A stretch of 45,790 bases of DNA from an uncultured Verrucomicrobiota bacterium. GTDB taxonomy: Bacteria > Verrucomicrobiota > Kiritimatiellia > CAIVKH01. A program made the translations under genes and the position numbers. This document shows, one piece after another, positions 30,070 through 38,086 of the stretch. Positions within the stretch are counted from its first letter, which is position 1, and each line of letters opens with the position of its first letter. The stretch lies in contig CAYTVN010000002.1 of assembly GCA_964441655.1 (NCBI GenBank), forward strand, positions 1-45,790, read 5' to 3'. Under the pieces are notes generated by a model. That model saw only the letters and a program-made list of their open reading frames with translations, made no database searches and had not been told where the DNA came from.

Positions 30070-31515
30070 ATGAATAAAACAGAATATTTGATAATTGGCG
30101 CGGGTCCGACCGGGCTGGGGGCAGCGACGCGTTTGCAGGAAAAAGGGAAGGACTGGCTCCTGCTGGAAGCCGAACAGCATTTTGGCGGATTGGCGTCATC
30201 CTTCAAAGATCCGCAGGGATTTACCTGGGATATGGGCGGGCACGTCCAGTTTTCCCACTACGAAACCTTCGACCGCTACATGGACCAGGCCTTGGGCCCG
30301 GAGGGATGGAATACTCACCAGCGGGAATCCTGGGTCTGGATCAAGAAGCGCTTCGTACCTTATCCCTTCCAAAACAATCTTCACCGTCTCGACCCCGAGG
30401 ACCGGTGGGCTTGCATGGAGGGACTATTGGAGGCGTGGCAGCGGGAGCAGGCCAGAAGTCAGACTTCAGATCTCAGATCTCAGACCGCAGACCTCAAACC
30501 TCAGGCCTCGACCAGAAACTTTGAAGAATGGATGCTCGATACCTTTGGCCCGGGCATCACCGAATTGTTCATGTATCCCTATAACTTCAAAGTGTGGGCC
30601 TATCCACCGTCTCAGATGGACGCGCACTGGATCGGTGAGCGCGTATCCGTGCCGGGCCTGGGGGGCGTGATCAAATCCATCTGCCTGAACCGAGACGAAG
30701 TTTCCTGGGGCCCCAACAAGGTCTTCCGTTTTCCCAAGCGGGGTGGCACGGGGGCGGTGTGGGAAGCCATCGGCCGGGGGCTTCCCGCGGATCGGGTTCA
30801 ATTGGGCCGGGCCGTGACCCATATCGATCCCGTTGCCCGTACGGTGAAAACCCACGACGGCCAAACATGGTCGTATCAACATCTGATCTCCACCATAGCG
30901 CTGAATCACTTGATCGGGATGGCACCGGGTGTGGTTCCTCCGGAACACGCCGGCTTGCTCCGCTATTCATCCACCAACGTCGTTGGTGTCGGCTTGAACG
31001 GCGCGGTGCCCGAGTCCCTCAAAACCAAGTGCTGGATGTATTTCCCGGATGCCAACAGCCCGTACTACCGGGTGACCGTGTTCACCAACTACAGCCAGGA
31101 GAATGCGGCCAAACCCGGCCAGCAGTGGTCCCTCATGACGGAAACGGCCGAAAGCCCCCTGAAGCCTGTCCGTCCGGAAAGCTTGGTGGAAGAAACACTG
31201 CTGGCTTTGGAAGAAGACCGGTTGATACCCGACCGCTCCGCCATCTGCTCGGTGGTACATAAGCGTCTGGAGCAGGGCTATCCCACGCCATTCTTGGGCC
31301 GGGATGCCGTGGTGGATCCAATGCTGCGCGCTTTTGAAGCAAAGAGCATTTATAGCCGAGGGCGGTTCGGGGCCTGGAAATACGAGGTGGCCAACCAGGA
31401 TCATTCTTTTGCCCAGGGCTACGAATGTGTGGAGCGACTGGTTGCGGGGGGCGGATCTGAATGCGAGCCCACGCTGTTTACGCCTGATCTGGTGAACAGC
31501 CGGAGAAATCCCTGA
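30070..31515 (+). CDS. glf: UDP-galactopyranose mutase, resembling the eukaryotic-type enzymes (from memory of fungal/kinetoplastid UGM sequences)
   Basis: 'LIIGAGPTGLGAA', 'GGLASS..GFTWDMGGHVQFSHY', 'YPFQNN', 'YNFKVWA', 'FRFPKRGGTG', 'GYPTP', 'SRGRFGAWKYEVANQDHSF'. Contains an in-frame heptamer-repeat insertion. Confidence 0.8.
   Translation: MNKTEYLIIGAGPTGLGAATRLQEKGKDWLLLEAEQHFGGLASSFKDPQGFTWDMGGHVQFSHYETFDRYMDQALGPEGWNTHQRESWVWIKKRFVPYPFQNNLHRLDPEDRWACMEGLLEAWQREQARSQTSDLRSQTADLKPQASTRNFEEWMLDTFGPGITELFMYPYNFKVWAYPPSQMDAHWIGERVSVPGLGGVIKSICLNRDEVSWGPNKVFRFPKRGGTGAVWEAIGRGLPADRVQLGRAVTHIDPVARTVKTHDGQTWSYQHLISTIALNHLIGMAPGVVPPEHAGLLRYSSTNVVGVGLNGAVPESLKTKCWMYFPDANSPYYRVTVFTNYSQENAAKPGQQWSLMTETAESPLKPVRPESLVEETLLALEEDRLIPDRSAICSVVHKRLEQGYPTPFLGRDAVVDPMLRAFEAKSIYSRGRFGAWKYEVANQDHSFAQGYECVERLVAGGGSECEPTLFTPDLVNSRRNP
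30452..30514. repeat. nine tandem heptamers (CCAGAAG TCAGACT TCAGATC TCAGATC TCAGACC GCAGACC TCAAACC TCAGGCC TCGACCA), 63 nt, in frame inside the UGM gene
   Basis: Read directly. It encodes RSQTSDLRSQTADLKPQAST. 9 x 7 = 63 nt preserves the reading frame. Confidence 0.8.
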
Positions 31516-32664
31516 TTGAACGCCCGGATATCCATTTTGGTTCCTGATGTGGGCAGCCCCATTCTGGGCGCGGCCACCGCACTGGCCAAGCATTTGCAGC
31601 AGGCTTACCAGGTGGAAATTGTTGGTCCTGATTTGGGGTCGGGTGTGTGCGCGATGTATCGCGATACCTTTCCGTACCGGGTGGTCCCGGCGCCCCGCCT
31701 GTACCGCCTGCCCGATTTCATCTGGGAATCGCGCCGGTTGAGCCGTGCCCTGGATGGTGATTTGATCATCGCGGTGAAGGCTTACGCCAACACCATTCCG
31801 CTGGCCTGGTGGGAGAAGGTTAGGCGGGGCCGGCGGGCGGTGGCCTATCTCGATGAATGGGATGGCGCATTGTTCAGCATGCTGAACCTACGCCAGAAAT
31901 GCCGCTCGGCCCTTGGCAACCTCCACCATCCCTTGGAGGATATTTATTACCCTTGGATCGAAAAATTGATCCCGCGACTGGATACGGTGCTGTCCACCAC
32001 CACCTTTCTTCAAAAGAAATTCGGCGGCCACCTTGTGCATATGGGGGTGGATACCGACTATTTTTCGCCCAGCGCTGAGGCGGAGGTCGAAGCGCTGAAA
32101 CACGAGTTGGGCCTCGGTTCGTTGAAGAATATTGTCTTTGGCGGTGTGGTGCGGCCACACAAGGGGATTGAATTGATTCTGGAAGCGCTGGCCCAGTTGG
32201 GAAATGCCCGCTACCGGCTGGTCATTGTTGGGCCCAAAAATGCACATGTGGAGCATCTGCTGGCCGAGGAGCGCTATCGTCCGTATCTGGTCGCTCTGGG
32301 TGCCCGGCCCAAGGAGGAGATGCCCCGTTATTTGAGTTTGGCCGATGCCATCGTACTTCCGCTATCCAACAACCTGCTGGCTCAGTCCCAGATGCCGTGC
32401 AAGGTTTTTGAGGCCATGTCCATGGCCAAGCCGGTGATCGCCTCCCAGGTGTCAGATCTGCCGCTGGTGCTGGAGGGCTGCGGCCGGTTGGTTCCGCCGG
32501 ATGATGCCACCGCACTGGCTCGCGCCATTGATGAGTTGTTCTCCAATGAAGCGGAAGCTCGTCAACTGGGTTTGGCCGCCCGGGAAAAATGTATTCGCCT
32601 CTATAGCCGCGACGTCACCAGAAACCAGTTGATCAAGTTGGCCGCATCGCTCCTGGACGCGTGA
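31516..32664 (+). CDS. glycosyltransferase family 4/1 (GT-B)
   Basis: TTG start directly abutting the upstream TGA. 'GGVVRPHKGIELILEAL', 'KVFEAMSMAKPVIASQVSDLPLVLEGCGRLV'. Confidence 0.85.
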   Translation: MNARISILVPDVGSPILGAATALAKHLQQAYQVEIVGPDLGSGVCAMYRDTFPYRVVPAPRLYRLPDFIWESRRLSRALDGDLIIAVKAYANTIPLAWWEKVRRGRRAVAYLDEWDGALFSMLNLRQKCRSALGNLHHPLEDIYYPWIEKLIPRLDTVLSTTTFLQKKFGGHLVHMGVDTDYFSPSAEAEVEALKHELGLGSLKNIVFGGVVRPHKGIELILEALAQLGNARYRLVIVGPKNAHVEHLLAEERYRPYLVALGARPKEEMPRYLSLADAIVLPLSNNLLAQSQMPCKVFEAMSMAKPVIASQVSDLPLVLEGCGRLVPPDDATALARAIDELFSNEAEARQLGLAAREKCIRLYSRDVTRNQLIKLAASLLDA

Positions 32665-32692
32665 AGACCTCATACCCGCCGTATAATATCCC

Positions 32693-33967
32693 ATGATGTC
32701 CCGACCACTACGCATCCTGTTTGTCAACCGCATGGCCACCCTGGTCCGGGGTGGGGGGGAGACATTTGATCTGGAGATTTCCGCCAGTCTGGAGAAATTA
32801 GGCTGCCAGATAAGCTATCTTACCGGAGCCCCCGTGTGGGGCGCGCCGCCGTTGCCGCTGGCACATCCCCGGTCCCATCTGATTCGATCCCCGTATCTGC
32901 CCTGGTTCCCGTGGGACAAGGTAAAGGCCGGTTGGCGCGTCCGGGTGTGGGAATTCAGCCAGTTTGAGCGCAAGGCCGCGCGGTGGATCATGGCCCACGC
33001 CAACGAGTATGATGTGATCCAAATCTGCGAGCTGCCGTATCTTGTTTCCCTGCTTAAATCGGCGGACACTCCTTGTCCGACCCCTGTTGTCCTTCGTCTT
33101 ACCGCGCCTAATGCCCACGATCCATGGGGCGGCGTGAAGCTGGCGGATGCCGTTATCGCCAGCGGAACGTCCATTGAAAAAGTGCGGAAGAAGGTGCGGC
33201 CGTCCGTGTTTGATGTGCCCAACGGAGTAAATTTGGAGCGGTTTAACCAGCCTGAAGCCGCAAGACTGACGACGGATTTTCGGGCTCGCCACAACATTCC
33301 GGCCTCCGCCCCGGTAATGCTCTATGTCGCCCGCTTTCAGGCCTTCAAAAATCACAATCTTCTGATGGATGCCTTTCTGCGCGTGGTCCAGGACGCACCC
33401 GACGTGCGGTTGGTTCTGGCTGGGAGTGGACCGCTCAAGAAGGAGATCGAGGCCAGATGTCAGACGTCAGAGCTGCGGGATCGCGTGCTTTTTCTGGGCG
33501 AGGTTCCCTTTTCCGATCTGCCCAAGGTATATGCCGCGGCTGACATCAAAGTTATTTCCAGCGAGTACGAGTCTTTTTGCTTCGCCGCCATCGAGGCCAT
33601 GGCGGCGGGTCTGCCGGTGGTCACCACGGATTGTGGATGGGTCCCGAAACTGATTGGCGATACGCTACCGCCCATCGAAAAACAGTGGGCCCACGGGGGT
33701 GATGCGCCGGGGCGATTCGCGGTCGAGCAGGATGGGAAACGCATCCGCACGGCGCCGGGCGGCCTGGTGGTAAGCAGGGTGGAGGCAGACTCGCTGGCCG
33801 CAGCCATGAAGGTGATGCTGCAAGATGCAACTCTGCGGGCCGAAAACGGCGCGTGGAATCGCAAAAAAGCTGTGCGTGAGCACGGCTGGGAAAGTAGCGC
33901 CCAAAAATTGCTGGGCGTGTACCGGGGGCTGGTATCTGATGTCGGAGGTCGGAGATCAGAGGTCTGA
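32693..33967 (+). CDS. glycosyltransferase family 4
   Basis: 'RILFVNRMATLVRGGGETF', 'LYVARFQAFKNHNLLMDAF', 'SSEYESFCFAAIEAMAAGLPVVTTD'. The last ~10 codons and the stop lie inside a heptamer array. Confidence 0.9.
   Translation: MMSRPLRILFVNRMATLVRGGGETFDLEISASLEKLGCQISYLTGAPVWGAPPLPLAHPRSHLIRSPYLPWFPWDKVKAGWRVRVWEFSQFERKAARWIMAHANEYDVIQICELPYLVSLLKSADTPCPTPVVLRLTAPNAHDPWGGVKLADAVIASGTSIEKVRKKVRPSVFDVPNGVNLERFNQPEAARLTTDFRARHNIPASAPVMLYVARFQAFKNHNLLMDAFLRVVQDAPDVRLVLAGSGPLKKEIEARCQTSELRDRVLFLGEVPFSDLPKVYAAADIKVISSEYESFCFAAIEAMAAGLPVVTTDCGWVPKLIGDTLPPIEKQWAHGGDAPGRFAVEQDGKRIRTAPGGLVVSRVEADSLAAAMKVMLQDATLRAENGAWNRKKAVREHGWESSAQKLLGVYRGLVSDVGGRRSEV
33453..33473. repeat. three tandem heptamers CCAGATG TCAGACG TCAGAGC inside the GT4 CDS
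   Basis: Read directly. Same TCAGAnn family. Encodes ...RCQTSEL... Confidence 0.45.
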
Positions 33968-33972
33968 AGGCA
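33938..33972. repeat. heptamer array GATGTCG GAGGTCG GAGATCA GAGGTCT GAAGGCA (left arm; inverted orientation of the CnGACCT unit)
   Basis: Read directly. It contains the GT4 stop codon (33965-33967). 'GAGGTCTGAAG' is the perfect complement of 'CTTCAGACCTC' at 34367-34377. Confidence 0.8.
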
Positions 33973-33981
33973 AGAGCTGGC

Positions 33982-34401
33982 ATGCAGATTAAATCAGCGA
34001 AGGAACTGGACGTATATAAACTGGCGTATTCCTTGAGTATGCACATATATGATCTTTCCAAGGCATGGCCGAAAGATGAGCAGTACGCTTTGACCGATCA
34101 ATGTCGAAGATCCAGTCGTGCGGTCTGCGCCGGTCTACGTGAAGCATGGGCGAAACGACGGTACGAAGCTCACTTCGTCAATAAGCTGACAACGTGCGAC
34201 GGCGAGAACAGCGAAACGGACACATGGTTGGATTATGCCTTGGATTGCGGTTACATCTCCGCTGATGTTCATCGTGATCTCGTCGGAACGATTGCCCATA
34301 TCGGAGCTATGTTGGGGAAAATGATGCATAACCCAAAGCCTTTCTTATCGGTAAGCCGACCCCCCACTTCAGACCTCCGACCTCAAGCCTCTGACCTCTG
34401 A
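33982..34401 (+). CDS. four-helix-bundle protein (23S rRNA intervening-sequence protein / S23p family; Avd-like fold)
   Basis: 'ELDVYKLAYSLSMHIYDLSKAWPKDEQYALTDQCRRSSRAVCAGLREAW...ENSETDTWLDYALDCGYIS' matches my memory of the family pattern (L-VY-A...IY...FP..E...L..Q.RR...S). The body is visibly AT-richer than its neighbours (by eye, not computed). The C-terminal 'RPPTSDLRPQASDL' is encoded by the heptamer array. Confidence 0.85.
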   Translation: MQIKSAKELDVYKLAYSLSMHIYDLSKAWPKDEQYALTDQCRRSSRAVCAGLREAWAKRRYEAHFVNKLTTCDGENSETDTWLDYALDCGYISADVHRDLVGTIAHIGAMLGKMMHNPKPFLSVSRPPTSDLRPQASDL

Positions 34402-34404
34402 CCT
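34356..34404. repeat. heptamer array CCGACCC CCCACTT CAGACCT CCGACCT CAAGCCT CTGACCT CTGACCT (right arm)
   Basis: Read directly. It contains the stop of the four-helix-bundle ORF (34399-34401) and ends 6 nt before the asnB-2 ATG. Confidence 0.8.
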
Positions 34405-34410
34405 TCAATC

Positions 34411-36276
34411 ATGTGTGGCATAGCCGGATTCATCGGTACGGATTCCCGCCTAGACGAGGCTCTCCTCGTGCGCATGCAGCGCGCGCAGAAGCATCGGGGG
34501 CCGGACGACACGGGTCTCATGTTTCAGATCCGGGCCTCGGCGGATGCAAACCGTCCGGCGGTTCGTGTCGGCATGGCGCATAACCGGCTGAGTGTGCTGG
34601 ATCTTTCCGGGGCGGGGCATCAGCCCATGCGCACCACCTCCGGCGAGCACTGGATTTGTTACAACGGAGAATTTTATAATTCGCCCGACTATCGTGCGGC
34701 CATGAAGGGGCGGGGGTTAGAATTCCGGTCCACCTCCGACACTGAAGTGCTGCTGAACCTATGTCGCGACCTGGGCGTGGAGAAGACGCTGCCAAACGTC
34801 AATGGAATGTTTGCTTTCAGCTATTTTGACGGGACGCGCGAGGAGCTATTCCTCTGCCGCGACCGAGCCGGTCAGAAACCGCTTTTCTACATGATTCTCC
34901 CCGATGGTTCGCTGGTTTATGCTTCGGAAATACCAGCCCTTTTGGCCTCTGGACTGGTCCCGGAACGGGACATCGACGTTCAGGCTTTTGATCATTATTG
35001 GACCATGGGCTACACCGCGGGGGAACGCACATTCTACCGTTCCATACGCCGACTGCGGCCCGGAGCCATGGCCTGCTGGCGTCAGGGCAAAACGGAGATC
35101 AAAACGTATTGGCAACTCACCTTTGATCCGCTGGATGACGCGGGCAAGGATCTCAAGCGTCATGTGGATGAGTTCATCCCGCTGTTGGAAGACGCGGTCC
35201 GGTTGCGTCTGCTGTCCGATGTGCCGGTGGGCATCTGCCTGTCCGGGGGCATTGATTCGTCCCTGATGGCGGTCATGATTTCCCGGCTGCGCGCCGATGT
35301 GCCCGCGTACACCATTGCCTTTGAGGGATCGCCCGCGGACGAAGCCCAGCAGGCGGGTGCCATTGCCCGCCACCTCGGAATTGAGCACCGCGTACTGAAT
35401 GTATCGGGCGACCTGGCCCGCGAGTTCCCCACCATCGCTTCCTGGTATGGCGAGCCGTTTGGCGATGCCTCTTCCATTCCCATGTACTTTTTGTCCCGCA
35501 TGATCCGGGAAAGCGCCACCGTGGCCCTGACCGGCGATGGCGGGGATGAACTTTTCGGCGGCTATCACCATTATCGGGAAGGATTACACATCTGGGGGGC
35601 GGGCCATCTTGACCGGGCCGGTGGGCCGCGCGGGTTCAAGGCGGCGATTCGTGCCGTGTTGTTGCGGAGGGCCGGGATCGCCACTGGTTACGAACGCATG
35701 CAGCGTCATGCCAATGAGAAACTAAAACGTGCCCTCTACAGCACGACTGCGCTGGAGCTGATTGATCCGGAGGAAACGGCCGAGCAGCGCCGGCAATGGC
35801 TGGCCCCGGTTCGCGATCCTCTGGCCGCCATGCAGAATTGTGATTTCCATGTGTACATGACCGACGACGTGCATACCAAGGTGGACCGCATGAGCATGGC
35901 GCATGCATTGGAGTGCCGGAGCCCGTTTATGGATTACCGGATTCTGGAGTGGGCGGCCCGCCTGCCCACGCGGGTCAAAGTGTCCGGGTCGGGAGCGGGC
36001 AAACTGGTCTTGCGCGATTTGCTTTCTCGCTTCATGCCTCGGGAATTGTATGATCGTCCCAAGCAAGGGTTTACGCCGCCCTGGGAGCGCTGGTGCACGG
36101 GTGAATTCCGTCGGCAGGTGCGTGCGGACTGGCTTGGTTTGAACGACGCGATGGTAAACCCCGGTGCCGTTGACATACTGCTGCCGGAGCAAGGGCCGGT
36201 CTCACCTGTTCTGTCCTGGATGGCGTATTCCTATGTGCAGTGGAAGAAGTCACAACTTGTAACCTGCAACCTGTAA
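34411..36276 (+). CDS. asnB: asparagine synthase (glutamine-hydrolysing)-like amidotransferase, copy 2
   Basis: 'MCGIAGF', 'RLSVLDL..GHQP', 'CYNGEFYN', PP-loop 'SGGIDSS'. The stop codon lies inside a TGTAACY heptamer array. Confidence 0.95.
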   Translation: MCGIAGFIGTDSRLDEALLVRMQRAQKHRGPDDTGLMFQIRASADANRPAVRVGMAHNRLSVLDLSGAGHQPMRTTSGEHWICYNGEFYNSPDYRAAMKGRGLEFRSTSDTEVLLNLCRDLGVEKTLPNVNGMFAFSYFDGTREELFLCRDRAGQKPLFYMILPDGSLVYASEIPALLASGLVPERDIDVQAFDHYWTMGYTAGERTFYRSIRRLRPGAMACWRQGKTEIKTYWQLTFDPLDDAGKDLKRHVDEFIPLLEDAVRLRLLSDVPVGICLSGGIDSSLMAVMISRLRADVPAYTIAFEGSPADEAQQAGAIARHLGIEHRVLNVSGDLAREFPTIASWYGEPFGDASSIPMYFLSRMIRESATVALTGDGGDELFGGYHHYREGLHIWGAGHLDRAGGPRGFKAAIRAVLLRRAGIATGYERMQRHANEKLKRALYSTTALELIDPEETAEQRRQWLAPVRDPLAAMQNCDFHVYMTDDVHTKVDRMSMAHALECRSPFMDYRILEWAARLPTRVKVSGSGAGKLVLRDLLSRFMPRELYDRPKQGFTPPWERWCTGEFRRQVRADWLGLNDAMVNPGAVDILLPEQGPVSPVLSWMAYSYVQWKKSQLVTCNL

Positions 36277-36285
36277 CTTGTAACG
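36251..36285. repeat. heptamer array CACAACT TGTAACC TGCAACC TGTAACT TGTAACG (a distinct unit family, TGYAACY)
   Basis: Read directly. It encodes the asnB-2 C-terminus (...QLVTCNL*), contains its TAA stop, and ends 7 nt before the next ATG. Confidence 0.75.
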
Positions 36286-36292
36286 TTCCTGT

Positions 36293-37102
36293 ATGACGCA
36301 ACGTTTCAAATTTGTAAAAAACTGGCAGCGGTTTCTCACCTACTTGACGGACGAGCGGATTGCCGAGGCCGAGAAATCGCTGCGCGCCATGCTCGGGGTG
36401 GAGAATCTGGCCGGTCGCACCTTTCTTGATATCGGATCGGGCAGCGGGTTGTTCAGCCTGGCCGCACGGCGTCTGGGTGCGCGTGTGCGCTCTTTTGACT
36501 ACGATCGCGACTCGGTGGCCTGCGCCGAAGACCTGAAGCAACGTTTCGAAAAGGATCCGGCGGCATGGACTGTCAGCTGGGGCGATGTGTTGGACGCGGA
36601 CTTCATGGCGGGGCTGGGTCTCTACGACGTGGTATACGCGTGGGGCGTGCTTCATCACACGGGTGATATGTACCGCGCCTTGGATCATGCCGGGCGCTGC
36701 GTAAAGCCGGGCGGCCAGTTGTTTATCGCCATTTACAACGATCAGGGCGGCATTTCCCGACGCTGGCTGGCCGTGAAGAAAATGTACTGCTCCGGATGGC
36801 CCGGACGCTGGCTGGTGACCGTGTTCGGATCGGCCTATTTCGTCTTGGTCTGCCTCAAGGAGGACCTGGTCCGGTTTCGCAATCCGTTCACCCGGTACCG
36901 CGAGTACAAAAAGAACCGGGGCATGTCTATGTTCACGGACTGGATTGACTGGTTCGGTGGCTACCCCTTTGAAGTCGCCAAACCGGAAGGGCTGTTTGAA
37001 TTCTACCGGGAACGCGGCTTTGTGCTCGAAAAACTGGTCACCGTGGGCGGCAATCTCGCATGCAATGAACTGGTGCTGCGAAAAAAGGATAACCAGGCAT
37101 GA
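36293..37102 (+). CDS. class I SAM-dependent methyltransferase
   Basis: Motif I 'FLDIGSGSGLFSLAA'; 'YDVVYAWGVLHHTGD'; 'VKPGGQLFIAIYN'. Confidence 0.85.
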   Translation: MTQRFKFVKNWQRFLTYLTDERIAEAEKSLRAMLGVENLAGRTFLDIGSGSGLFSLAARRLGARVRSFDYDRDSVACAEDLKQRFEKDPAAWTVSWGDVLDADFMAGLGLYDVVYAWGVLHHTGDMYRALDHAGRCVKPGGQLFIAIYNDQGGISRRWLAVKKMYCSGWPGRWLVTVFGSAYFVLVCLKEDLVRFRNPFTRYREYKKNRGMSMFTDWIDWFGGYPFEVAKPEGLFEFYRERGFVLEKLVTVGGNLACNELVLRKKDNQA

Positions 37103-37341
37103 CCCCTTCTGTCCTTCGGAGACGCCTTGCCGCCAGGCCCTGGTGGTTTGCGCTGGTATTGGCGTCCTCGTGTGCCGAACGTCCCGACACGGACTGGTAC
37201 GACGCTTCTGTCCAGGACAAAGAGGCTAAGAAGGACTACATCCAGACCCAGGTGTCGATTGGGGTGGATCCTGAGCAGGCCCGCAAGCAGTATGAATTGA
37301 ATGAGATCATTCTCAATACGGAAGGGCGAAACAGCGACTGA
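37099..37341 (+). CDS. small hypothetical secreted protein or lipoprotein (80 aa)
   Basis: ATGA overlap with the upstream stop. Basic N-terminus, hydrophobic stretch, then '...LASSC' (non-canonical lipobox), followed by a charged tail. No family recognised. Confidence 0.45.
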   Translation: MTPSVLRRRLAARPWWFALVLASSCAERPDTDWYDASVQDKEAKKDYIQTQVSIGVDPEQARKQYELNEIILNTEGRNSD

Positions 37342-37375
37342 AGCGCCCCCCTCCGCGCCAGTGCCTCCGCGAACT

Positions 37376-38086
37376 ATGAACACGCCTCTGGTCACCATTG
37401 TCTGCAGCACCTATAACCGTGCGGATATTGTACGCGGGGCCATTGAATCGGTGCTGGCTCAGGACTATCGCGACTGGGAGATGTGTGTGGTGGGTGACTG
37501 TACCCCCGATGACACGGCGGGCACGGTGGCTTCCTACAAGGATGCCCGGCTGCGCTACTACAATTTGACCGAAAAATCGCCGCCGGGCAGTCACGGCGCG
37601 ATCGCGAAGAATCACGCCATTTTCAACATGGCCCGGACCCCGTACATCGCTTACCTCGATGACGATGACCACTATCGGCCCCAGTACCTGAGCACCATGA
37701 TGGGCTATCTGGCGAAGCACCCGGAGGCGGACTTCCTCTACTGCCGCTGTGCTTATCGCGACAAGAAAACCGGGCGCCGGGTTTGGGGCAATCCCTTCCA
37801 GCGCTGGTTGCATGGTTATTCGAAGGAAAAGCTGAAGCGATACAACTTCATTGATACCGATTGCGTTGTTCACCGGCGGGCCATCCTGGACGATGTGGGT
37901 GGGTGGAACCCGGATTTCTATTTCGACGACTACGAACTCTGGCTGCGCATCAGCGAGAAATACAACATCCACTACTTGAACAAAGTGTTGGTGGAAAAGT
38001 TCGTGTCGGAACCACCCTTCCTCGTGCGCGCCTTTACCAAGGGCATGAAGATTCTGCGACACGGCCGGACCAATCCGCTGGAATAG
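37376..38086 (+). CDS. glycosyltransferase family 2
   Basis: Start placed at the ATG at 37376, so that 'LVTIVCSTYNRADIVRGAIESVLAQDYRDWEMCVVGD' is N-terminal. 'YLDDDD' is the DxD motif. Confidence 0.85.
   Translation: MNTPLVTIVCSTYNRADIVRGAIESVLAQDYRDWEMCVVGDCTPDDTAGTVASYKDARLRYYNLTEKSPPGSHGAIAKNHAIFNMARTPYIAYLDDDDHYRPQYLSTMMGYLAKHPEADFLYCRCAYRDKKTGRRVWGNPFQRWLHGYSKEKLKRYNFIDTDCVVHRRAILDDVGGWNPDFYFDDYELWLRISEKYNIHYLNKVLVEKFVSEPPFLVRAFTKGMKILRHGRTNPLE

Follow-up and report, generated by a model that had tools for sequence, protein, structure and literature searches.

A four-helix-bundle gene between inverted heptamer arrays in a glycan operon of an uncultured Verrucomicrobiota bacterium

We analysed a 45,790-nucleotide stretch of DNA (the window; contig CAYTVN010000002.1 of assembly GCA_964441655.1) from an uncultured Verrucomicrobiota bacterium (Kiritimatiellia; CAIVKH01). 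Between a GT4 glycosyltransferase gene and an asnB-like gene of this window lies a cassette of about 470 bp, made up of a left arm of (GAGGTCR)n, a short leader, a gene of the TIGR02436/PF05635 family and a right arm of (YGACCTC)n. This gene family was first described inside intervening sequences (IVSs) of 23S rRNA. The cassette is very probably a unit insertion at the stop/start junction of the GT4 and asnB-like genes. The features of the locus are as follows.

32693 to 33967, forward strand: GT4 glycosyltransferase gene, the upstream host gene, with its native C-terminus replaced or extended by left-arm sequence
33935 to 34401, forward strand: entire cassette as a predicted long-range stem-loop, with the arms paired and the start of the open reading frame (ORF) in the loop
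33938 to 33972, forward strand: left arm, about five degenerate heptamers of unit GAGGTCR, encoding the last 10 residues and the stop of GT4
33982 to 34401, forward strand: cassette ORF, 139 aa, PF05635/TIGR02436 four-helix-bundle protein ('23S rRNA IVS protein', S23p)
33982 to 34347, forward strand: four-helix-bundle core of the cassette ORF, residues 1-122
34348 to 34398, forward strand: array-encoded tail of the cassette ORF, predicted disordered
34356 to 34404, forward strand: right arm, about seven degenerate heptamers of unit YGACCTC, containing the ORF stop and complementary to the left arm
34411 to 36276, forward strand: asnB-like gene (asparagine-synthase-like amidotransferase), the downstream host gene, starting directly after the right arm

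The cassette gene and its arms

Hidden Markov model (HMM) searches placed the ORF in the 23S-rRNA-IVS family, as a preliminary description of this DNA had proposed. PF05635 matched with 93.4 bits (cut-off 33.8) and TIGR02436 with 84.9 bits (cut-off 24). The spacers of 14 nt to GT4 and 9 nt to the asnB-like gene that it reported were confirmed, and so was the AT-richer body of the cassette, with a GC content of 0.495-0.535 over positions 33900-34399 vs. 0.59 in the entire window. The AlphaFold (AF2) monomer model of the cassette protein has a pLDDT of 89.4, with helices at residues 10-26, 34-57, 62-88 and 94-116 and low confidence at residues 122-139. Foldseek matched this model to 2gsc (TM 0.89-0.93, rmsd 1.2-1.6) and 2rld, both of which were also found by sequence, and to Avd, the accessory protein of diversity-generating retroelements (DGRs) (4dwl, TM 0.89; 8ub7_C). 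Avd, whose pentamer is positively charged, binds the structured RNA that flanks its template, and the cassette protein shares its fold. Identity with a DGR Avd was rejected on HMM scores (NF033474, 32.7 bits vs. a cut-off of 80; PF22296, 27.2 vs. 40); among the five flanking window genes that the Pfam scan covered there was neither a reverse transcriptase nor a template/variable repeat pair.

The cassette ORF is 87% and 78% identical in amino acid sequence to its orthologues in loci L003 and L004, respectively. Its neighbours are less conserved (76% and 65% for GT4; 83% and 68% for asnB). Compared with L003 the dN/dS ratio is 0.10 (dS 0.47), and compared with L004 dS is saturated at a dN of 0.14. 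Purifying selection acts on the ORF, so its protein is functional. As to the activity of this protein, we infer by analogy with S23p and Avd that it is likely a nucleic-acid-binding pentamer. No further copy of the ORF was found within the window by a phmmer search of its six-frame ORFs, no PADLOC defence-system model matched the cassette, and no homologue was found in phage genomes. A promoter/terminator scan around the cassette gave nothing exceeding shuffled sequences.

The two opposite-orientation heptamer arrays were recovered by TRF as period-7 arrays at 33941-33964 and 34356-34404. The two-unit pattern GAGGTCNGAGGTC, with two or fewer mismatches, matched the window 18 times vs. 3.3 ± 2.2 times after shuffling, and none of 100 shuffles reached 18. 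Only about two or three heptamers per arm are exact and the remaining units are degenerate. Chance or generic microsatellites as the origin of the arrays are ruled out by this shuffle test together with positional controls. The arms form an inverted repeat (33935-33969 and 34367-34401) of 35 nt with 77% complementarity, and its inner ends form a perfect 11-mer (GAGGTCTGAAG/CTTCAGACCTC), in line with the 11-bp complement and further imperfect pairing noted earlier. Because the stop codons of GT4 (33965-33967) and of the cassette ORF (34399-34401) both lie within the arrays, array sequence encodes the tails ..SDVGGRRSEV and ..TSDLRPQASDL, as had also been recognised before. The right arm ends 6 nt before the asnB ATG.

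Folded by themselves, the arms reach -45.0 kcal/mol vs. -30.6 ± 4.1 kcal/mol for shuffled sequences (z = -3.6; 0 of 300 shuffles reach this value). In a 541-nt transcript, left-arm bases pair with the right arm at a mean probability of 0.76, and the enclosing stem is present in the minimum-free-energy fold as well as in the ensemble. The corresponding left-right pairing probabilities in the orthologues are 0.70 (L004) and 0.68 (L003). Because GAGGTCR has GG runs only and no G-tracts of three or more, it cannot form canonical G-quadruplexes. The arms (GGAGG/CCTCC) were also considered as Shine-Dalgarno or anti-Shine-Dalgarno mimics; they lie 10-40 nt from the start codon. Bacteroidota, the hosts of some cassettes, rarely use Shine-Dalgarno sites. 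A weak three-unit GAGGTC-like run without an exact unit, inside GT4 at 33449-33468, is probably due to chance.

The cassette in relatives and across bacteria

Orthologous junctions were reached through orthologues of the asnB-like gene, and the identities below are those of asnB vs. the window unless GT4 is named.

L131 (asnB 83%): GT4/asnB junction with the ORF and both GAGGTCR arms
L004 (asnB 68%): GT4/asnB junction with the ORF and both GAGGTCR arms
L132 (asnB 70%): GT4/asnB junction with a 67-nt spacer, neither ORF nor arrays
L136 (asnB 59%): GT4/asnB junction with a 40-nt spacer, neither ORF nor arrays
L135 (asnB 68%): GT4/asnB junction with an ORF-less 171-nt element with different (CACGGAT-type) arms
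L089 (GT4 60%, no asnB-like gene downstream): both GAGGTCR arms, a loop of about 70 nt, no ORF

The empty-site comparison proposed in the preliminary description thus yielded two empty junctions, and the arms are present at the occupied junctions (L002, L003/L131 and L004) and absent from the empty ones. At occupied sites arm sequence supplies the last ten or so codons of GT4, and the right arm adjoins the asnB ATG. In the two relatives with empty sites GT4 ends in ..VYQHLLS or ..VYGALLVGNHAVVTDK, each followed by the stop codon. A GT4-based search for empty sites in metagenomes met a different gene order and was informative only for L089. From these sequences, the ORF and both arms have very probably been inserted as one cassette, and the insertion took place in an ancestor of the window lineage that was probably Kiritimatiellia-like. 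The cassette is old at the window site. The arms in L004 are complementary at 25 of 27 positions despite saturated dS. Judged by sequence, ORF and arms are both maintained, unlike the S23p ORF of Coxiella burnetii, which is decaying (PMC4990558).

A species-representative scan (one genome per species) returned at least 589 relatives of the cassette ORF. The flank statistics use the best 80 (55-68% identity), which come from at least 10 phyla and include Kiritimatiellia, Lentisphaerota, Verrucomicrobiota, Planctomycetota, Chloroflexota, Desulfobacterota, Bacteroidota/Ignavibacteria, Acidobacteriota, Gammaproteobacteria, Alphaproteobacteria and Clostridia. Exact GAGGTC is enriched about 80-fold over background at -80 to -20 of the related gene starts and exact GACCTC about 85-fold at 0 to +80 past the gene cores; the opposite-orientation motif has zero occurrences in these bins. 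An orientation-neutral inverted-flank score of 12 or more was reached by 95% of 78 loci vs. 3% of 374 control windows displaced by 1.5-3.5 kb, and in a direct-repeat comparison of the flanks 14% reached this score. In 71 of 80 loci the period is 7 on either side of the gene, and arrays typically have about four to five units. Metagenome homologues (60-70% identity) often end in ..RPTSDLRPPTSDL, ..TSDL or ..SDR, which is translated (YGACCTC)n. Ends of the ..SDL type were found in 34 of the 111 homologue clusters that have a locatable core end, out of 120 listed.

Loci without GAGGTC arrays carry other units, again inverted. Among them are GGAGGCA/TGCCTCC (up to 15 units), CAGGAGT/CTGACTC, CAGAGGA/CCCTGTC and two period-8 pairs, GAGGGGCA/CTGACCCT and GTCTGTGC/GCACCGAC. 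A second four-helix-bundle clade has CAGGTTG/CAACCTG arms, and cyanobacterial plasmid homologues (42-52% identity) have GCAGGGGA/TCCCCTGC-type arms at seven of eight loci read. Arm-to-arm complementarity is thus conserved despite unit drift between lineages, and the arms are a trait of the gene family, not a peculiarity of the window locus. In L056 (4702-4949) and L011 (3740-3982) left arms are amplified to higher-order repeats, in which four heptamers and an 8-11-nt spacer recur every 39 or 36 nt, six to seven times over.

The upstream gene is co-directional with the cassette ORF at 62 of 70 loci, and both neighbours are at 41 of 70, with gaps of about arm length. The flanking genes are unrelated from locus to locus. 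Among the genes that cassettes split are known operon partners: Wzm/Wzt, DUF58/TgpA, GFO-type oxidoreductase/hexapeptide acetyltransferase, GT2/carbamoyltransferase and accB/accC. A conserved link with asnB was rejected, L029 being the only other locus with an asnB-like gene directly downstream of the cassette; such a gene lies 2-3 kb upstream of the cassette in L052 and L081. The closest intragenomic pair seen (L053) has 85% nucleotide identity. With family-wide arms, an old site under purifying selection and two more window arrays, one of a different heptamer, these results go beyond the preliminary description in three points.

Solo arrays, ORF-less pairs and the Xanthomonas repeats

By Pfam scan, the window genes flanking the cassette encode an amine oxidase, two GT4 proteins, asnB, a methyltransferase and a GT2 protein. 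The two additional arrays lie in or beside these genes.

36254 to 36284, forward strand: solo (AACCTGY)n array at the asnB/methyltransferase junction, encoding the asnB tail ..LVTCNL and ending just before the methyltransferase ATG
30459 to 30513, forward strand: solo (TCAGACC)x8 array of the right-arm unit, in frame within the amine-oxidase-like gene at 30070-31515, encoding ..TSDLRSQTADLKPQAS...

The array at 36254-36284 has the unit and the position of the right arm of second-clade cassettes in L134 and L135, which carry a TIGR02436 gene of that clade between CAGGTTG/CAACCTG arms at the asnB/methyltransferase junction. We read the array as the probable remnant of such a cassette, since lost. 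The same junction carries a solo (AACCTGY)n array in L131, like the window, and is empty in L136. In L133 it holds a GxxExxY (TIGR04256, PD-(D/E)XK) gene between inverted arrays of the CACGGAT type. Inverted arrays of a CACGGAT-containing unit about 10 nt long flank this gene (L133 5860-6440) and also ORF-less elements (L135 2810-2990 and L132 5845-6030). This unit resembles the native asnB 3' end (..ccacggataa), and it is a possibility that arms are seeded from local sequence.

At the point matching the amine-oxidase array, (CAACATT)n and (AATCCAA)n take the place of TCAGACC in the L004 orthologue, and a homologue further removed lacks any insert. Heptamer arrays seem to have a hot spot here, in a loop of the protein. 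Within the GT4 gene of L004 (8800-8861), a 16-residue in-frame insert in the interdomain linker consists of left-type and then right-type heptamers. This ORF-less mini inverted pair is absent from the window, L003 and L089. The element of L089 (4016-4150) retains both arms and a leader-like sequence in its loop while the four-helix-bundle ORF is gone, and it reads as an ORF-deleted derivative. Toxin-antitoxin modules (PhdYeFM-PIN, PemK, PIN) are also seen at cassette-type junctions (L134 1676-3759 and 7982-8377; L135 4958-5589), in L135 with the toxin-antitoxin pair between two left-arm copies. These operon junctions seem to collect small selfish genes.

Xanthomonas citri has a four-helix-bundle gene between accB and accC (L142, 2429-2871). 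It shares 85% identity with XCC0516 (the protein in PDB 2gsc) and is bracketed by a GGGAATC-type array and its complement (GGGAATC/GATTCCC). Upstream of the called ATG this gene seems to have no in-frame start, and the copy may be truncated. According to the main text of Rehm et al. 2015 (PMC4692102), each Xanthomonas genome has 70-75 inverted GGGAATC heptamer pairs, typically of about four units, convergent, and mostly located between co-directional ORFs near the upstream stop. These pairs are transcribed, and their length varies among relatives. The main text interprets the Xanthomonas and Nostoc heptamer repeats as G-quadruplex formers, leaves the function of the pairs as unknown to the authors and reports that heptamer repeats are over-represented generally in prokaryotes. 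The terms 'S23', 'intervening', 'xcc0516', 'accB' and 'accC' have zero occurrences in that main text, and none of the listed passages with 'four' concerns a four-helix bundle.

At least one Xanthomonas pair of this kind is the arm set of a four-helix-bundle cassette. The window cassette is similar to these pairs in having two convergent tandem heptamer arrays between co-directional ORFs. It differs in its unit, which has no G-tracts for G-quadruplexes, and our account differs in assigning the arrays to a gene cassette. A search of the open-access literature for the gene-plus-arms design yielded the heptamers of the Coxiella IVS and the paper on Xanthomonas and Nostoc repeats and nothing more, and the design appears to be previously undescribed.

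Possible roles of the arms in RNA and in DNA

The preliminary description had offered a selfish IVS-like insertion cassette as one reading of the locus. The empty L132 and L136 junctions vs. the occupied relatives, the recurrence in unrelated operons and the analogy with IVSs bear this out. For its other reading, an RNA-processing or segmental-stability element, folding predicts the stem that such a role would need. In the 23S IVS of Coxiella burnetii, terminal inverted repeats form a stem that is cut by RNase III, the S23p ORF lies in the loop, and variable tandem heptamers (GACAGAT) are found just upstream of this ORF (PMC4990558). Like the 23S IVSs of Coxiella burnetii and Leptospira (PMC4990558), the window cassette has a PF05635 protein in the loop and terminal inverted repeats around the ORF. 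It has no promoter of its own and would be expressed by host read-through, and the IVSs too are regarded as selfish elements (PMC4990558). The Coxiella heptamer GACAGAT is near-identical to the GACAGAG unit of some cassettes. Unlike the 23S IVSs, the cassette lies between protein genes of an operon and not in helix 25 or 45 of 23S rRNA. Its arms are full heptamer arrays instead of a unique 28-bp repeat, and its ORF is under purifying selection. Scanning of 88 sequences (the window and L001-L087, including the 80 genome-scan loci) revealed no 23S motif, a negative of moderate strength. We class the cassette as an element of IVS type that resides in operons and whose arms are tandem arrays.

We favour, with a probability of roughly 0.55, a promoter-less, horizontally spread IVS-like selfish cassette whose arms pair in the read-through transcript and loop out the ORF, RNase III probably cutting the stem. 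The cassette belongs to a very large family located between co-directional genes, with close relatives inside 23S rRNA. It would be transcribed by operon read-through, and its arms would then pair into a long-range stem, in which many pairing registers are possible because the arms are tandem arrays. Such a stem would probably be an RNase III substrate, as in the rRNA IVSs. For the processing step itself, which is drawn from that analogy, we would put the chances a little below even. Cleavage would part the cassette mRNA from the host cistrons, which would make the insertion tolerable and would set the expression of the ORF and of the downstream gene. Because GT4 and the cassette ORF end within the arms, 14 and 9 nt before the next ATG, translation of each ORF would unfold the stem and might link expression of the three cistrons, a coupling that we infer from this arrangement. 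The predicted long-range pairing in three orthologues, the co-orientation of promoter-less cassettes with host transcription, the constant polarity with the purine-rich arm upstream, the persistence of the arms at a vertically inherited site and the precedent of RNase III cutting such stems in IVSs (PMC4990558) all argue for an RNA stem.

Several observations weigh against this transcript-level model. If an RNA stem were under strong selection, G·U pairs would be expected to be favoured among the transition mismatches between arms; no such bias is seen, the sense strand having 200 A·C and 162 G·U. Homogenisation of the seventh heptamer position (A 87, G 47, T 5, C 2) is confined to each arm; between arms it is unmatched, with 67 matches observed vs. 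68.2 expected, so that many stems would be 6-bp helices with mismatch interruptions. The preliminary description had suggested comparing the predicted stem with shuffled controls: the arms alone stand out, as given above, and the whole region does so barely, with a z-score of just -1.97. Translation runs through both arms in the window, and ribosomes would thereby melt the stem. One of the eight cyanobacterial loci read, L130 (an Oscillatoria plasmid, around 2486-2896), is the sole exception to inverted arms there, with direct GGGAGAGT-like arrays. Finally, no direct repeat that could be a target-site duplication is visible outside the arms, and no transposase, integrase or reverse transcriptase was seen in the cassette or its immediate neighbours.

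The lack of a G·U bias in the arm mismatches leaves room for a DNA-level role of the arms. In this case an unrecognised activity, encoded by the host or by the element, would insert, excise or copy the cassette and would use the arms as terminal inverted repeats or as cruciform or hairpin sites, and RNA pairing would be incidental. We consider this rather unlikely; it ranks second after the transcript-level model, and the two are not exclusive. At orthologous junctions the arms were gained or lost together with the ORF. The spread over phyla implies mobility, and the design is common to two unrelated ORF types, the four-helix bundle and GxxExxY/PD-(D/E)XK. Solo arms inside genes or at gene ends would fit as well, as would the ORF-less two-arm derivatives (intergenic in L089, the GT4 insert at 8800-8861 in L004), which resemble MITEs (miniature transposable elements bounded by inverted repeats).

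Correia elements of Neisseria are MITE-like, are transcribed into mRNAs and are cut by RNase III. Like these and like repetitive extragenic palindromic (REP) sequences and bacterial interspersed mosaic elements (BIMEs), the cassettes are short insertions with inverted repeats that lie between genes transcribed together and fold within the mRNA, and they too have ORF-less two-arm derivatives, but their arms are tandem short-period arrays and the full element has a conserved ORF. As in a transposon or MITE, terminal inverted repeats stand at the boundaries of the insertion; a target-site duplication and a cognate transposase were not seen, and we know of no transposase or RAYT-type enzyme that is cognate to the cassettes. 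Against a DNA-level role, besides this lack of a mobility gene and of a visible duplication, the arms were kept at the orthologous site across saturated dS, whereas transposon ends no longer in use would be expected to decay. The invariably upstream position of the purine-rich arm, together with the orientation of the cassettes along host transcription, points to a constraint at the transcript level.

It is improbable that the arrays serve as repeated sites (iterons or operators, in RNA or DNA) to which the pentameric four-helix-bundle protein binds. The protein would then act in autoregulation or nucleoprotein assembly, and the complementarity of the arms would be one duplex motif in two orientations. 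The conserved 6-nt core with a free seventh position, the within-arm homogenisation and the own unit of each protein clade agree with such sites. The typical number of about four to five units, also given in the main text of PMC4692102, could fit a pentamer, and the structural relative Avd binds RNA stem-loops in the DGR ribonucleoprotein (bioRxiv 10.1101/2023.10.23.563531; Foldseek 8ub7_C). However, the GxxExxY (PD-(D/E)XK) cassette has arms of like design, which makes the arms independent of the four-helix-bundle protein; ORF-less two-arm elements persist; and the unit drift within the clade looks gradual, with no tie to protein changes seen.

That the ORF is a domesticated component or regulator of the glycan operon, with unrelated slippage-prone microsatellites or G-quadruplex motifs beside it, is very improbable and already largely refuted: synteny is kept in four relatives with the ORF under purifying selection, and prokaryotes have a heptamer excess with a G-quadruplex reading for Xanthomonas and Nostoc (main text of PMC4692102), but the ORF is missing from the same operon in L132 and L136, close homologues lie in unrelated operons of many phyla, the arrays are 80-85-fold enriched, orientation-specific and complementary around the ORF, and GAGGTCR lacks G-tracts of three or more. 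An integron cassette was rejected, as there are two arms instead of one attC and no integrase family match among the window genes at 30070-38086 (Pfam).

The cassette links three separate puzzles, namely the ORFs of rRNA IVSs, the scattered four-helix-bundle genes, and the intergenic heptamer excess that includes the Xanthomonas pairs. We suggest a single element type behind all three, in which complementary tandem-array arms loop out a small gene that sits between co-transcribed genes. A wider version, which we regard as doubtful, is that array-bracketed four-helix-bundle (TIGR02436) and GxxExxY (TIGR04256) genes form one unrecognised class of tiny mobile intervening sequences that colonise rRNA and operon junctions. 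In such a class the tandem-array arms would serve both mobility and RNase III excision, the protein would recognise the arrays, and ORF-less and solo derivatives would explain much of the heptamer excess. For annotation, it matters that the cassettes add repeat-encoded tails to neighbour proteins and leave in-frame repeat inserts in genes. Both roles of the arms lend themselves to direct tests in tractable organisms. Should the arms act on DNA, an unrecognised mobility mechanism would lie behind the cassettes. If the arms direct RNA processing, the cassettes would be the mRNA counterparts of rRNA IVSs, reshaping operon expression in many phyla, even that of accBC in Xanthomonas.

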